A stretch of DNA of 42,507 bases. Origin: Bacteroidota bacterium (GTDB lineage Bacteria; Bacteroidota; Bacteroidia; Bacteroidales; CG2-30-32-10). The stretch covers positions 1-42,507 of the forward strand of contig JAZDMF010000122.1 in NCBI GenBank assembly GCA_043801235.1. Reading direction: 5' to 3'. A model generated the notes under the pieces. It saw only the letters and a program-made list of their open reading frames with translations, did not search any database and was not told the origin of the DNA. Positions 2,213 through 22,729 of the stretch are shown in pieces. The translations under genes were made by a program, and so were the position numbers. Position 1 is the stretch's first letter. Each line of letters opens with the position of its first letter.

Positions 2213-2626
2213 ATGATAATAACCCAGAAATATGTAAATAATATCGCTTACAGAGTTGTTGGATGTGCAATTGAAGTTAATAAACAATTAGGTCCGGGGC
2301 TTCTCGAATCAGTATACGAAAGTTGTTTTATTGAAGAATTGAAAATGGATGGGCTTGATGTTAAATCTCAAGTATATGTTCCCGTTATTTACAAAGGCAA
2401 AGATTTAGGAGGTTTCTTAAAAATAGATATTCTAGTAAACGATATTTTGATAGTAGAGATAAAAGCCGTGGATACGATGATTCCAATATATAAAGCACAA
2501 CTTTTGTCATACTTAAAATTAGCTGTAAAACCGAAAGGATTATTAATAAATTTTAATTCAACAAATATCATTGAGGATATGACTCCTCTTGTAACCGAAG
2601 AATTTGCAAAGTTGCCTAAAGAATGA
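2213..2626 (+). CDS. GxxExxY family protein (PD-(D/E)xK nuclease-like fold)
   Basis: This 137-aa ORF has the family-defining LGPGLLESVY motif and a D...ExK-like core (KIDILVNDILIVEIKAV). By manual count it is 97/136 identical to the ORF at 20536-20946. Confidence 0.85.
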   Translation: MIITQKYVNNIAYRVVGCAIEVNKQLGPGLLESVYESCFIEELKMDGLDVKSQVYVPVIYKGKDLGGFLKIDILVNDILIVEIKAVDTMIPIYKAQLLSYLKLAVKPKGLLINFNSTNIIEDMTPLVTEEFAKLPKE

Positions 2627-2739: not shown

Positions 2740-2746
2740 TGTGAAG

Positions 2747-3178
2747 ATGAATATTTCAGAAACTGAAAACGAAATCATCAGTGAATTTGAACAGTTCGAG
2801 GACTGGCTGGATAAATACAATTACATCATTGAACTTGGAAAATCATTGCCCCTGATAGATGAAAAATACAAGACACAGCAATATATAATAACAGGCTGCC
2901 AGTCGCAGGTTTGGTTGCAGGCTTCTTTAGAAAATAATAAAATTATTTTTAAAGCAGATAGTGATGCCATAATCACGAAAGGTATTGTCAACCTTTTAAT
3001 ACGTGTGTTTTCAGGACATACACCAGAAGAAATATTGAATGCTGATCTTGGTTTCGTGGATAAAATAGGTTTGCGCGAACACCTTTCTCCCACGCGTTCA
3101 AACGGATTAACTTCAATGATAAAACAAATGAAGCTTTATGCGCTTGCCTTTAAAACCAAACTTTCACAAAAACAATAA
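2747..3178 (+). CDS. sufE: Cysteine desulfuration (sulfur acceptor) protein SufE
   Basis: The active-site context GCQSQVWL is present and the size is SufE-like. The gene follows sufS. I prefer the ATG at 2747 over the GTG at 2741 used by the ORF track, but either is possible. Confidence 0.85.
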   Translation: MNISETENEIISEFEQFEDWLDKYNYIIELGKSLPLIDEKYKTQQYIITGCQSQVWLQASLENNKIIFKADSDAIITKGIVNLLIRVFSGHTPEEILNADLGFVDKIGLREHLSPTRSNGLTSMIKQMKLYALAFKTKLSQKQ

Positions 3179-19983: not shown

Positions 19984-20421
19984 TTACCGGTTAGGAAGTT
20001 TTACAATTGTGAGCCAGAAATCTTCAATGGATTTAACCACTTCCATGAATTTATTCAGGTCGAGCGGTTTTGTGATATAGCAGTTCGCATGCAGGTTATA
20101 AGTTTTCAGAATATCTTCTTCTGCTTTTGAAATTGTCAAAATAACCACCGGTATCCTTTTCAGGTCATCGTCTTCTTTTATTTCCGCAAGAACTTCACGT
20201 CCGTCTTTTTTTGGCAGGTTAAGATCAAGAATGATCAGGTCGGGACGGGGAGCATCTTTATAATCATTTTTCCTGAAAAGAAAATCGGTTGCCTGTACGC
20301 CGTCATACACAATATGAATTTTGTTTTTGACTTTACTATCTTTCAATGATTCCTGTGCCAGCCGGGCATCGCCGGGGTTGTCTTCTATCAGAAGAATGTC
20401 AATAATTTTTAAGTTTTCCAT
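19984..20421 (-). CDS. Stand-alone receiver-domain response regulator (Rcp1/CheY-like)
   Basis: This is a 145-aa REC-only protein with ILLIEDNPGD, the phospho-acceptor context LIILDLNLPKKDG and CYITKP. Confidence 0.9.
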   Translation of the reverse strand: MENLKIIDILLIEDNPGDARLAQESLKDSKVKNKIHIVYDGVQATDFLFRKNDYKDAPRPDLIILDLNLPKKDGREVLAEIKEDDDLKRIPVVILTISKAEEDILKTYNLHANCYITKPLDLNKFMEVVKSIEDFWLTIVKLPNR

Positions 20422-20447
20422 TTTTTATGATTTTTGATTAATGTAAC

Positions 20448-20535
20448 TCTTTACCACGGAGGCACGGATTACACGGAGGTTCACGGAGAAAAACGCTCTG
20501 TGTTTCTCTGTGTAATCTGTGTCTCAGTGGTTTTT
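20448..20535. repeat. Word-array hairpin flanking GxxExxY cassette 2 (3' side of the gene)
   Basis: The left arm has CACGGAG/CACGGAT/CACGGAG/CACGGAG starting at 20455, 20463, 20472, 20482 (spacing 8-9-10). The right arm has CTCTGTG/CTCTGTG/ATCTGTG/CTCAGTG starting at 20496, 20506, 20515, 20523 (spacing 10-9-8). On the plus strand three of the four helices need one G:T wobble. The element begins TTTACCAC and ends CAGTGG followed by a T run. Confidence 0.9.
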
Positions 20536-20946
20536 TTATTCTTTAGGCAATTTTGCAAACATTTCAGTAACAAGTGAAACTAAATGTTCTTTAATATTTT
20601 CACAATTAAAATTTATTAATAATCCTTTAGGTTTTCCTGTAAGTTTCAAATACGATAAAAGTTGCGCTTTGTATAACGGAATCATTATTTCTACTGCTTT
20701 CTCTTCAACAATAATTAAATCGTTTACAACTAAATCAAGTTTTAAAATTCCGCCCAAATCTTTTCCTTTATAGTGTACAGGAACATATATTTGTGACTTT
20801 ACAGATAATCCAGCGCTTCTCATTTCATCAATAAAACAGATATCATAAACCGATTCGAGCAAGCCTGGACCAAGGTGTTTGTGCACTTCAATAGCACAAC
20901 CAATTATCTTATATGAAATTTCATTTATGTGTTTTTGTGTAATCAT
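20536..20946 (-). CDS. GxxExxY family protein (PD-(D/E)xK nuclease-like fold), second copy
   Basis: This 136-aa ORF has LGPGLLESVY and LDLVVNDLIIVEEKAV. It is about 71% identical to 2213-2626. Confidence 0.85.
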   Translation of the reverse strand: MITQKHINEISYKIIGCAIEVHKHLGPGLLESVYDICFIDEMRSAGLSVKSQIYVPVHYKGKDLGGILKLDLVVNDLIIVEEKAVEIMIPLYKAQLLSYLKLTGKPKGLLINFNCENIKEHLVSLVTEMFAKLPKE

Positions 20947-20958
20947 ATCGTTTTTATT

Positions 20959-21046
20959 TATTTACCACTGAGGTACAGAGAGCACGGAGGTACACGGAGA
21001 AATTCTCTGTGGTTCTCTATGCTCTCCGTGTCTCCGTGGTTTTTTA
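20959..21046. repeat. Word-array hairpin flanking GxxExxY cassette 2 (5' side of the gene)
   Basis: The left arm has CACTGAG/TACAGAG/CACGGAG/CACGGAG starting at 20966, 20974, 20983, 20993 (8-9-10). The right arm has CTCTGTG/CTCTATG/CTCCGTG/CTCCGTG starting at 21005, 21015, 21024, 21032 (10-9-8). It has the same ends as 20448-20535 (TTTACCAC... ...CGTGGTTTTTT) and abuts the kinase stop codon at 21047. Confidence 0.9.
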
Positions 21047-22729
21047 TCATTTTTTTAATGTAAAATAAAAAGTTGTTCCTTCATTTTCTTTCGATTCAAA
21101 CCATATTCTTCCGCCATGCCTTTCAATGATACGTTTGCATATTGAAAGACCTATGCCCGTTCCGGTATATTCTTCTTTGGAATGCAGGCGCTGAAAAATA
21201 GTAAATACCTTGTCATGATATTGCATATCTATTCCGATACCATTATCCCTGACGGCAAACTCATAAAAATCATTTTTCGTTTTACAGGAAATATGAATCT
21301 TAGGCAATTCGGGTTTCTTTTTATATTTGATTGCATTTTCAATAAGGTTCTGAAAAACACGCCCAATCTGTGATTCATCAACATTCAAAACTGGCAACTC
21401 TTCGTTTGTGACCAAAGCTGTGTTCGATGTTATCATTTGGTGAAGGTTCGAAACAGCCTGCCCAAGAATCAGGGAAATATCAACCCTTGTGAATTCCTTT
21501 CCCTGCGAAGATATCCTTGAATAGTCAAGCAGGTCGTTAATCAGTTTTTGCATCCGGCTTGCTCCTTCAACTGCATATTGAATAAAATCGTTTGCATCCT
21601 GGTCCAATTTGTCTTTGTATCTTCTTTCAAGCAATTGTGTATAGCTCGATACCATTCTTAACGGCTCCTGCAAATCGTGCGAAGCTACATAGGCAAATTG
21701 TTCCAGTTCCTGGTTTGAGCGCTGCAAATCAGCCAGAGCATTCATGAGTTGTTCTTCAGCTTCCCTTTCTTTTGTTACATCAAGGTTTGTTGACTGATAC
21801 CCGATAAGCTCACCATCTGCATTTCGAAGACTTGATGCAAATCCACGGGAGATAAAGGTTCTTCCATCAAATGTCTTAGCTTTAAATTCGCCTTCCCATG
21901 CATCATATTTTGCCAGCGCTTCAAGCACAGGAGTTGCATCAGCTGGATTGGCGAAGAATGAACCAACGCTTTTACCGATAGCTTCATCTATGTTAGAATA
22001 GCCCCACATTTTCAGGAACGATGGGTTCACGTGTGTAATTATTCCTGCGCTGTCGGCGATACTCTGGGAAGCAATTGAATCATCAAACACTTTATTTTTA
22101 ATTCGCAGGTCGGCTTCGGCTTGCTTGCGCTCGTTTAATAATTTATTAAGTTCTTCATTAGTAATGATTAACCTTTCCCTTTCCCTTTCCCTTTCCCTTT
22201 CCCTTTCCTTCTTAGCAATGATCAACTCTGTTGCGCGTTTTGCCTTTTCTTTGTTGGCAATGATTAGTTCGGCAGCACGTTTCTCTTTTTCTTTGTTGGC
22301 AATGATCAATTCAGCAGCACGTTTTTCTTTTTCTTTGTTTTGAAAGGCAAGTTCTTTGTTGGCTATTATTAACTCTGCAGCACGTTTCTCTTTTTCTTTG
22401 TTCTGAAATACAAGTTCTTTGTTAGCAATGATTAGTTCGGCAGCACGTTTTTCTTTCTCTTTATTTTGAAAAGCGAGTTCTTTGTTGGCAATGATTAGTT
22501 CGGCAGCACGTTTTGCTTTCTGTTTATTTTTAAAGGCAAGTTCTTTGTTGGCAATGATTAACTCTGCTGCCCATTTTTCTTTCTCTTCGTTTTGAAAGGC
22601 AATGTCTTTATTGGCGCGTTCGAGGAGTTCCTGTGTAATCTTTAATTTTTCTTCACTTTCTTTCAGCCTGTTTACTTCCTGCTCCAGTTTCTGCAAGTCG
22701 TTTATAAGTTCTTCTCTGGTTTTGCTCAT
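21047..22729 (-). CDS. Sensor histidine kinase: coiled-coil tandem repeats, PAS, HisKA, HATPase_c
   Basis: The H-box FAYVASHDLQEPLRMV and the boxes NAIKY, DNGIGI and GTGIGLS are present, with one PAS-like segment. The N-terminal 190 aa are dominated by repeats of AAELIIANKELAFQNKEKEKR. Confidence 0.9.
   Translation of the reverse strand: MSKTREELINDLQKLEQEVNRLKESEEKLKITQELLERANKDIAFQNEEKEKWAAELIIANKELAFKNKQKAKRAAELIIANKELAFQNKEKEKRAAELIIANKELVFQNKEKEKRAAELIIANKELAFQNKEKEKRAAELIIANKEKEKRAAELIIANKEKAKRATELIIAKKERERERERERERLIITNEELNKLLNERKQAEADLRIKNKVFDDSIASQSIADSAGIITHVNPSFLKMWGYSNIDEAIGKSVGSFFANPADATPVLEALAKYDAWEGEFKAKTFDGRTFISRGFASSLRNADGELIGYQSTNLDVTKEREAEEQLMNALADLQRSNQELEQFAYVASHDLQEPLRMVSSYTQLLERRYKDKLDQDANDFIQYAVEGASRMQKLINDLLDYSRISSQGKEFTRVDISLILGQAVSNLHQMITSNTALVTNEELPVLNVDESQIGRVFQNLIENAIKYKKKPELPKIHISCKTKNDFYEFAVRDNGIGIDMQYHDKVFTIFQRLHSKEEYTGTGIGLSICKRIIERHGGRIWFESKENEGTTFYFTLKK
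22160..22624 (-). repeat. In-frame tandem repeats (63-nt and 42-nt units) encoding the ELIIANKELAFQN(K/E)EKEKRAA motif
   Basis: About five 21-aa units and three shortened 14-aa units (AAELIIANKEKEKR) are read directly in the translation, aa 36-190. The DNA units are highly similar, for example the recurring GCAATGATTAGTTCGGCAGCACGTTT. Confidence 0.9.
22172..22207 (-). repeat. Hexanucleotide microsatellite (CCTTTC)6 encoding (ER)6
   Basis: Six perfect CCTTTC units are seen on the plus strand. On the coding strand they read GAAAGG x6, giving ERERERERERER. Confidence 0.95.

Follow-up and report, generated by a model that had tools for sequence, protein, structure and literature searches.

What maintains the short complementary words that flank a small nuclease gene in the contig JAZDMF010000122.1 (assembly GCA_043801235.1) of a Bacteroidota bacterium? 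The stretch analysed here, which we call the window, comprises positions 1 to 42,507 of this contig, and its positions 20,448-21,046 hold the second of two genes of the GxxExxY family, each set between two palindromes built from iterated heptamers, or words. The first-pass annotation of this DNA noted that the word differs between the two cassettes while the number, spacing and complementarity of the words are kept, and read this as compensatory covariation: the signature of selection on structure, or of a protein that co-evolves with its own repeats. We find that the arms are complementary because one word is repeated in both orientations, that comparable arrays accompany GxxExxY genes across the family and that the type of word is loosely correlated with the protein phylogeny. 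With about even confidence, we take the flagged region to be one copy of a selfish element that consists of a PD-(D/E)XK nuclease gene and inverted arrays of three to four heptamer copies, and whose nuclease would read the words as DNA.

The gene in question, copy 2, lies on the minus strand (20536-20946) and codes for a protein of 136 amino acids (aa) that is assigned to the PD-(D/E)XK nucleases by the TIGR04256 and PF13366 profiles. It had been described as a 71%-identical paralogue wedged between the stop codon of a kinase gene (21047) and the start codon of a regulator gene (20421) and sharing their strand; the list of open reading frames (ORFs) agrees, and the proteins of copies 1 and 2 are 70.6% identical. 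On either side of the gene is a palindrome with four words per arm and mirror spacing, the words following each other in steps of 8-9-10 in one arm and 10-9-8 in the other, and the word coordinates confirm this for both flanks. The upstream palindrome (20964-21040, minus strand) reads CACGGAG-CACGGAG-CATAGAG-CACAGAG / CTCCGTG-CTCCGTG-CTCTGTA-CTCAGTG in gene sense, and 19 nucleotides (nt) separate the end of its right arm from the ATG. The downstream palindrome (20453-20531, minus strand) reads CACTGAG-CACAGAT-CACAGAG-CACAGAG / CTCCGTG-CTCCGTG-(a)TCCGTG-CTCCGTG in the same sense. Seen on the plus strand, the left arm of the downstream palindrome has its words at 20455 (CACGGAG), 20463 (CACGGAT), 20472 and 20482 (both CACGGAG), and the right arm at 20496 and 20506 (both CTCTGTG), 20515 (aTCTGTG) and 20523 (CTCAGTG). 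The corresponding positions in the upstream palindrome are 20966 (CACTGAG), 20974 (tACAGAG), 20983 and 20993 (both CACGGAG) on the left, and 21005 (CTCTGTG), 21015 (CTCTATG), 21024 and 21032 (both CTCCGTG) on the right.

The arms of the downstream palindrome (20453-20488 and 20496-20531; inverted repeat I3) are 78% complementary and those of the upstream palindrome (20964-21001 and 21003-21040; inverted repeat I4) 74%, and the two palindromes are direct repeats of each other with 75-80% identity (D1, D2). Against shuffles, the fold z-scores of the two flanks range from -6.8 to -11.3: the upstream palindrome folds with -40.2 kcal/mol on the sense strand and -45.8 kcal/mol on the antisense strand (z about -8), and the downstream one with -34.6 kcal/mol on the gene-sense strand as against -53.5 kcal/mol on the antisense, that is, plus strand. 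The G:T mismatches which the annotation had noticed on the plus strand of 20448-20535 are indeed there, on the strand that folds better. Each arm of this downstream palindrome is uniform in itself and the two arms differ in word variant (CACAGAG-type on the left and four times CTCCGTG on the right, in gene sense), which results in four identical A:C mismatches (G:T on the plus strand); given the comparison of 39 elements described below, this is a local peculiarity.

The other cassette of the window is organized in the same manner. Its gene, copy 1 (137 aa; 2213-2626, plus strand), was located by tblastn and in the ORF list and lies between sufS (885-2105) and sufE (2741-3178). Its two palindromes, also on the plus strand, are almost identical to each other, spacers included: the upstream one (2119-2198) reads CACTAAG-CACTTAG-CACTTAG-CACTAAG / CTTAGTG-CTTAGTG-CTCAGTG-TTCAGTG and the downstream one (2646-2730) CACTAAG-CACTTAG-CACTTAG-CACTATG / CTAAGTG-CTTAGTG-CTCAGTG-CTCAGTG. 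The word is CACTAAG/CACTTAG (facing CTTAGTG) in this cassette versus CACGGAG/CACAGAG in cassette 2, and its switch on both arms and in both flanks is real and, as shown below, general across the family. The form CACTGAG, found at the outermost position in cassette 2, is a single step from both window words and is plausibly the ancestral one. Within the 42.5 kb of the window, no array of at least three such words lies anywhere but at the four cassette flanks. As for the terminal motif CAGTGGTAAA that was said to be shared just before both ATGs, it is present (at 2193, and as its reverse complement at 20961), but it is no special shared leader: it is the generic outer end of all right arms (…GTGGTA, GTGGTT or GTGGTG).

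Does the switch of word record selection on a helix? We aligned the arms of 39 distinct elements with canonical spacing, arm against arm, and scored the true hairpin register along with wrong registers, in which each word is paired with the neighbour of its true partner and which cannot form in the same fold. In the true register 90.3% of the cells are paired and the covariation score is 0.174, which exceeds all 500 shuffles; the wrong registers, with shifts one way and the other, have 90.6% and 90.7% of the cells paired and scores of 0.191 and 0.194. At the two variable word positions complementarity is 0.70 in register versus 0.67 out of it, and in the compact hairpins 0.57 versus 0.63. The spacer columns are largely unpaired (18 and 14 of 39 for the second spacer, 9-11 of 39 for the third), and the mismatches on the sense strand are balanced, with 35 of the G:U type and 31 of the A:C type. 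Words differ at 0.90 positions when both are taken from the same arm, at 0.89 when they come from opposite arms of one element and at 1.45 when they come from different elements. Compensatory covariation as a sign of helix selection is hence not sustained: wrong registers score as well as the true one, and the spacers do not pair. As one word repeated in both orientations accounts for the complementarity of the arms, this complementarity is uninformative for or against a helix, and the homogeneity of one word across an element speaks for a factor that reads the word, or else for words evolving in concert. Thus, of the two explanations offered by the annotation, selection on structure falls away, and what remains is a protein that co-evolves with its repeats, or a concerted evolution of these words. 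More generally, apparent compensatory covariation in palindromes built from repeats calls for a wrong-register control.

Two further candidates were considered and rejected. A strand-specific G:T bias, as a sign of antisense RNA, is true of the four window hairpins and is not general: the better-folding strand is split 16 versus 16 in the class-A elements and 17 versus 9 in the compact hairpins. Arm-specific homogenization, prompted by the four A:C mismatches in 20453-20531, is not seen in the equal word differences within and between arms.

The arrays were then followed through the family using 80 close relatives of the window protein (69-91% identity; Bacteroidota, Ignavibacteriota and others) and 80 diverse ones (42-86% identity; more than 10 phyla); two more distant relatives from Verrucomicrobia (L106 and L119) were met while seeking an empty kinase-regulator site. 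At 136 of 164 GxxExxY loci at least one array of three or more words lies within 200 nt of the gene, and a strict detector of paired inverted arrays is positive at 33 of the 80 diverse loci and at none of 369 control tiles of equal size; the detectors overlook degenerate arms. The annotation had proposed that its idea would fall if other GxxExxY paralogues lacked flanking hairpins, and with arrays at these 136 loci it does not. Loci with word arrays span more than 10 phyla. The generic word is C-A/G-C/T-N-N-A-G, the outer ends of the arrays read ACCAC…GTGGT, and the lineage-dependent forms include CACGGAG/CACAGAG, CACTAAG/CACTTAG, CACATAG, CATTAAG, CATGAAG and CACAAAG, and further CGCAGAG, CGCAAAG, CACAGCG, CACGGAT and CGCCAAG. 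The spacing is strongly conserved: 40 of the 49 four-word elements have exactly the 8-9-10 / 10-9-8 steps. The left arms of L022 (1445-1500) and L027 (1458-1500), two Rikenellaceae metagenome-assembled genomes with the same insertion site, contain six and five words, respectively, and not four; the extra words come from a repeated 10-nt unit, AAGCACAGAG, which shows that slippage alters the number of words. In L001, L004, L040/L041, L162, L181 and L215 the elements are clustered, with tandem genes, gene fragments beside intact copies and series of two or three palindromes adjoining a gene; this is consistent with local duplication or with a preference for insertion beside existing arms.

Across these loci the type of word loosely tracks the protein. 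Word distance and protein distance are correlated (Mantel r = 0.36, reached by 0 of 2000 permutations): two proteins that go with the same word have a mean identity of 0.68, as against 0.57 where the two words differ at a minimum of two positions. A random distribution of words with respect to the protein phylogeny, which the annotation had named as a second possible refutation, is therefore not what is observed. At L482, L006, L039 and L073 the word type also matches within the contig.

The protein itself is a confident member of its family: copy 2 reaches 130.8 bits on TIGR04256, where the cut-off is 35, and 125.8 bits on PF13366, where it is 22, and PD-(D/E)XK is the only Pfam or NCBIfam match, with no transposase domain found in it. 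The name-giving motif is G28-L-L-E31-S-V-Y34, and the catalytic set comprises D71 and E81-x-K83, followed by Q95…Y99. Among 53 relatives (42-86% identity) there is no exception at E31, D71 and K83, and conservation exceeds 90% at E81, Q95 and Y99; with dN/dS values of 0.05-0.20 versus eight relatives, the sequence comparisons indicate that the protein is under purifying selection. An AlphaFold2 model from a broad alignment has a predicted local distance difference test score of 95. Its nearest folds in the PDB are weak matches (E 4e-3 to 7e-2; template modelling, TM, score about 0.45-0.53), namely Cas4 SSO0001 (E 4e-3, TM 0.46-0.53), lambda exonuclease and alkaline exonuclease. The sequence has the QxxxY motif and lacks the four-cysteine cluster that binds Fe-S in Cas4 proper. 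The model thereby weakly suggests a place in the RecB/Cas4 branch, whose members act on DNA, and no solved structure is closely related to it. Sequence searches of the PDB with the single protein and with a 53-sequence profile gave no match, and neither did PHROGs. The family has more than 7,700 cluster representatives in one search, in more than 10 phyla, and a superfamily survey of 2012 gave its function as unknown. Among cultured carriers, Aurantibacillus circumpalustris has a protein of 85% identity (P0165).

Gene and palindrome are combined in two distinct layouts. In the majority layout the ORF lies within a single palindrome (about 48 loci by map, 32 by a strict rule), the left arm ending 0-10 nt 5' of the ATG and the right arm starting 4-7 nt 3' of the stop codon. 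In the minority layout, to which both window copies belong, the order is palindrome, 19 nt, ORF, about 10-20 nt, palindrome; it is seen at 13 loci by map and recurs in several phyla (L106, L181, L215, L222, L237). In both, the ORF is at the centre of dyad symmetry. Compared with close relatives that have the other layout, the ORF is 85-91% identical in nucleotides, and identity falls to about 45-55% in the 40 nt that flank it on each side: homology between the layouts breaks exactly at the ATG and the stop codon. Class-A junctions read CACNNAG/ATG…TAA/T-CTNNGTG, and compact hairpins with loops of 0-1 nt exist. Some genes additionally have gene-free and tandem palindromes close by (L006, L037, L059, L074).

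Sites with and without the element can be compared directly in the alaS-radA spacer of Ignavibacteria. It is empty in L244 and L308 (67 and 95 nt, without words), full in L247, where the ORF is within a single palindrome, and full in L299, where a palindrome, the gene and a right arm follow one another. L242 retains both arms around a 5'-truncated pseudogene, and in L245 the left arm is followed by the initial bases of the ORF and by a right arm in decay; this gene-free remnant arose by internal deletion and, as it keeps the ATG region, derives from a gene-bearing copy. At least 14 more Ignavibacteria carry the element at this site. In L241 (about 1185-1300), from an Ignavibacteria-like metagenome-assembled genome, the spacer has divergent arrays, right then left, with words of the CACAGAG/CACAAAG type and no gene; its relatives have the CACTAAG type at the same site, which implies that the spacer has been used by two element lineages.

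The site of cassette 2 was likewise compared with 80 loci related to the host pair, which consists of a histidine kinase gene upstream (21047-22729) and a stand-alone response regulator gene downstream (19984-20421), both on the minus strand with copy 2 in the ORF list. In L081 and L082 a kinase 78-80% identical over its last 250 aa is followed directly by the regulator, with no cassette; the empty junction of L081 (kinase 80% and regulator 81% identical) has a spacer of 26 nt. The same junction is independently occupied in the Verrucomicrobia L106 (1890-2460) and L119 (1930-2480), whose distant GxxExxY genes (about 40% identical) each lie between two near-identical three-word palindromes with the words CACGGAT/ATCCGTG and CGCCAAG/CTTGGCG; the gene of L119 is apparently frameshifted near its 3' end. 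Just outside both palindromes of cassette 2 is a direct repeat of 26 nt with 24 of 26 positions matching and a 2-nt indel: one copy (21040-21063; TTACATTAAAAAAATGATAAAAAA in gene sense) includes the kinase stop codon and the other (20421-20446; TTACATTAATCAAAAATCATAAAAAA in gene sense) extends into the regulator start codon. Its local alignment score is 17 versus a maximum of 14.5 in non-cognate controls (D4/D5), and the 20421-20446 stretch aligns with the native kinase-regulator spacer of L081, the closest cassette-free orthologue. This repeat resembles a long target duplication; nothing similar is present at cassette 1 or at 31 of 32 other elements. The kinase gene itself contains a tandem array that makes up its N-terminal part (22172-22615, minus strand), with 5.2 units of 63 nt (21 aa, AAELIIANKELAFQNKEKEKR), 3.2 variants of 42 nt and a 6-nt run encoding (ER)n.

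Many of the hairpins occur without a gene. A search with a 26-nt arm pattern, ACCACNNAGRCACNNAGNNCACNNAG, which does not contain the inverted partner, matches at least 120 stretches of viral contigs, where only a few are expected by chance, and at least 120 stretches of metagenome contigs. Among the matches listed, the 1.04 Mb of pattern-bearing viral stretches hold no GxxExxY gene, 11 of 172 metagenome arms lie within 1.5 kb of one, for about half of the arms an inverted partner lies no more than 300 nt away, the median loop being 50-60 nt, and no other gene family is recurrent beside the hairpins: only phage structural proteins, which recur because the contigs are related, and GxxExxY do so. 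A single GxxExxY relative (L441) is found in the whole viral contig collection. The hairpins are thus comparable in their behaviour to a family of dispersed repeats, more numerous than the gene. At L482 both are seen together: a 54%-identical gene in the pheS-pheT spacer and, 1-5 kb off, three gene-free hairpins of the CACAAAG/CACGAAG class. In the viral contigs L321-L440 (IMG/VR; median G+C content 62%) three-word hairpins are frequent, with up to six arms per 12 kb, and some share conserved loops across contigs, as in L322 and L355. One contig of this database (L339, 3342-3477) has a nested hairpin, in which a hairpin of CACGAAAAG/TTCGTG words occupies the loop of another with CACAGAG/CTCCGTG words, which suggests that insertion favours loops, that is, dyad centres.

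These observations can be brought together in a mechanism. The nuclease, probably as an oligomer, would bind the words as DNA on both arms and cut at or beside the palindrome; repair or rejoining could then copy the ORF into unoccupied palindromes, which would amount to homing. Alternatively, the palindromes may be moved and duplicated in trans, in the manner of MITEs (miniature transposable elements with inverted repeats) or of REPINs, the hairpin-forming pairs of repetitive extragenic palindromic (REP) sequences. If each word is a binding site of the element's own protein, the words would stay alike and drift together with that protein. The two window copies would then be diverged lineages in one genome, each with its own word, and the apparent covariation between the two cassettes would be a consequence of this joint drift.

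Several points weigh against this proposal. A nuclease of 136 aa without strand-transfer or ligation activity would need host repair for any movement. The empty alaS-radA sites have no hairpin, so that transposition of the whole unit fits them better than homing into pre-existing palindromes, and there is no general target-site duplication: flanking direct repeats beat the controls in only 2 of 34 elements (cassette 2 and L042). No simple event was found that converts one placement of the ORF into the other; a circle junction, a tandem copy and an inversion were considered for turning an ORF inside a palindrome into one between two, and none works. The link between protein and word is loose and correlative: CACAGAG is used in Bacteroidota, Chloroflexi, Planctomycetes and Acidobacteria, in part by proteins 43-55% identical to the window protein, and is shared by proteins down to 43% identity. 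Among the matches listed, about half of the viral and metagenome arms have no inverted partner within 4 kb, and as many viral contigs without the gene have hairpins, mobilization in trans or an independent origin has to be assumed for them. Finally, nearly all of the loci come from metagenome-assembled genomes, and the counts from the collection scans are samples and lower bounds.

The alternative that survives best places the element at the level of RNA: the arms, transcribed together with the host operon, would form long stems that loop out or release the ORF in an RNase III-type process like that of the intervening sequences in 23S rRNA, stabilize the mRNA or insulate the host genes, and the change of word would mean that the helix has changed its sequence. 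Each of the four window palindromes is much more stable as a fold than shuffled sequence, and in most relatives the arms abut the ATG (0-10 nt) and the stop codon (4-7 nt), as this would lead one to expect. The orientation of the gene also agrees with it, since both neighbours are on the gene strand at 114 of 120 informative loci and both are on the opposite strand at 6. In both arms the spacers are rich in A when read on the sense strand, and in the compact hairpins the tails are A-rich on the sense strand in 17 of 26 cases and T-rich on the antisense strand in 17 of 26 versus 5 of 26 on the sense strand. In a scan of the window, all terminator-like sites are on the strand antisense to the operon and the sense strand has no intrinsic terminator, so that read-through is possible. 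The co-orientation, however, could be explained without any RNA function of the arms: a reversed element would put terminators into the host operon and be lost, and the ORF could be expressed by read-through. Insertions do split operons (sufS-sufE, kinase-regulator, alaS-radA, pheS-pheT) without terminating them, which is an issue for annotation. The sequence comparisons, moreover, give no register-specific covariation, unpaired spacers, no excess of G:U over A:C and no consistent better-folding strand. No Rfam family reaches its gathering score, either in the window or in 12 loci rich in hairpins, and the matches at E-value level are spurious microRNA-precursor models that fit any long hairpin. 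The nearest folds of the protein, weak matches as they are, belong to DNA nucleases, and the gene-free viral hairpins, the nesting and the presence/absence polymorphism are left unaccounted for. A function of the arms in RNA is thus unlikely as the whole explanation, though it might be an additional role beside mobility.

It could also be that gene and hairpins have no functional link: the word hairpins would be an independent REP-like family, spread by another agent or by replication slippage, and would mark permissive intergenic spots in which small selfish ORFs, with GxxExxY as one of them, collect. That 94% of the metagenome arms and all viral arms have no GxxExxY gene nearby, among the matches listed, is what such independence predicts, as are the half of the arms that have no inverted partner and the repeated use of the same spacers. 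It is hard to reconcile with the position of the ORF exactly at the dyad centre at conserved distances (0-10 nt, or 19 nt) in many phyla, with a word type that tracks the protein phylogeny and matches within a contig, and with the absence of comparable arrays from all 369 control tiles. No other gene family recurs beside the hairpins, and the gene-free remnant of L245 stems from a gene-bearing copy. We therefore consider a mere coincidence of the two quite unlikely.

A regulatory or defensive role is less probable still: the arrays would be operator-like sites of autoregulation, or the nuclease would attack foreign DNA, for example of phages, that bears them. The arrays adjoin the start codon, hairpins are present in viral contigs and the weak fold neighbours include the defence nucleases SduA and DrdV. 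PADLOC, however, has no match for the flagged copy and gives only weak Cas4/Cas4b matches (E about 0.006) for copy 1, there are no partner genes, the gene standing alone inside housekeeping operons, and the arrays beside the nuclease's own gene would be self-targets, just as phages would be expected to shed target arrays. The series of decay stages and the nesting also remain without an account. That the arrays are an artefact of chance or low complexity, for which one could point to the AT-rich region and the short words, is scarcely credible given no such arrays in 20 shuffles of the window or in the control tiles, fold z-scores down to -11, and an arm pattern that is often adjoined in its viral matches by the inverted partner that was not searched for.

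How, then, does a selfish element of nuclease and words relate to known systems? The REP unit is an imperfect palindrome of 20-40 nt with a GTAG/CGTC tag, and its partner RAYT (REP-associated tyrosine transposase) is a Y1/HUH tyrosine transposase like those of the insertion sequences (IS) IS200/IS605. With REP/REPIN-RAYT the element shares short palindromic repeats that lie in transcribed intergenic DNA, gene-free copies in large number for each gene, a gene flanked by inverted repeats, a repeat sequence specific to the protein lineage and long vertical persistence, here in the alaS-radA spacer of Ignavibacteria. It differs in having a PD-(D/E)XK nuclease, probably of the Cas4/RecB kind, in place of the Y1/HUH transposase, three to four heptamers with graded 8-9-10 spacing and ACCAC…GTGGT ends in place of a GTAG/CGTC-tagged palindrome, and an ORF that is often inside the palindrome; furthermore, the 42 kb of the window contain no gene-free copies beyond the two cassettes. 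The properties of REP repeats are summarized in PMC3733652. Pairs of IS and MITEs have in common with it the order inverted repeat-ORF-inverted repeat, multiple subterminal repeats resembling protein-binding sites, derivatives by internal deletion (here L242 and L245) and nested insertions; MITEs in general resemble it also in having copies shared with viral contigs (PMC11602168). In contrast to them, the element has no DDE, serine, tyrosine or HUH transposase and no regular target-site duplication, is only about 0.5-0.6 kb long, and has ORF boundaries that are the boundaries of the arms.

Free-standing homing endonuclease genes, too, are small nuclease ORFs in the middle of a symmetric sequence, which may here be the element's own split target, and they show presence/absence polymorphism, homology that breaks at the ORF ends and high nucleotide identity of the ORF across genomes. 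A PD-(D/E)XK homing endonuclease is known in I-Ssp6803I. Their target is a conserved host gene, whereas the presumed target here is a dispersed palindromic repeat; in addition, the empty alleles have no palindrome, and there is a second layout between two complete palindromes. The Leptospira-type intervening sequences of 23S rRNA, whose ORF codes for a four-helix bundle protein, are similar in that a small ORF lies in the loop of a long inverted repeat and is co-oriented with the host transcript; they differ in residing in rRNA helices, not mRNA spacers, and in their protein family, and the element studied here has no pairing-specific selection signal. The TAACTGA repeats of Beggiatoaceae, Cyanobacteria and Bacteroidetes are likewise iterated intergenic heptamers from partly the same phyla, but they are direct repeats that follow one another without gaps at a period of 7 nt, and they have neither an inverted partner nor an associated nuclease (PMC4679880). 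An integron cassette was considered and rejected: the arms end in ACCAC/GTGGT and not in attC core sites (R''/R', GTTRRRY), and the genes stand singly in housekeeping operons, not in a cassette array; an IntI integrase was looked for among the neighbouring ORFs only. Hence, the element is most like REP/REPIN-RAYT and the IS/MITE pairs, with features of homing endonuclease genes, and is a member of none of these. In the literature we found no publication that links GxxExxY, PF13366 or TIGR04256 to repeats, or that contains, in a relevant context, two or more of the six heptamer words looked for, and the widespread selfish element described here is apparently new to it.

The word arrays provide a first concrete lead to the function of the large GxxExxY/PDDEXK_3 family: as they are lineage-specific, they furnish a hypothesis of substrate, in which protein X goes with word X. 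They also account for one class of intergenic palindromes, abundant and without annotation, that bacterial and viral metagenome contigs contain. We put forward more tentatively that GxxExxY represents a new class of mobile elements, in which a minimal Cas4/RecB-like PD-(D/E)XK nuclease, without a transposase, might recognize the graded heptamer arrays of its lineage and spread itself, by ORF-precise homing into the centres of palindromes, and along with itself a large population of gene-free hairpins in bacteria and phages. If this is true, the REPIN/RAYT lifestyle would have been invented a second time and independently, here with a word code that looks programmable; and if the nuclease reads the words, then CACGGAG, CACTAAG, CACATAG, CATTAAG and CGCAGAG would constitute a natural specificity series for a very small DNA-recognition module.

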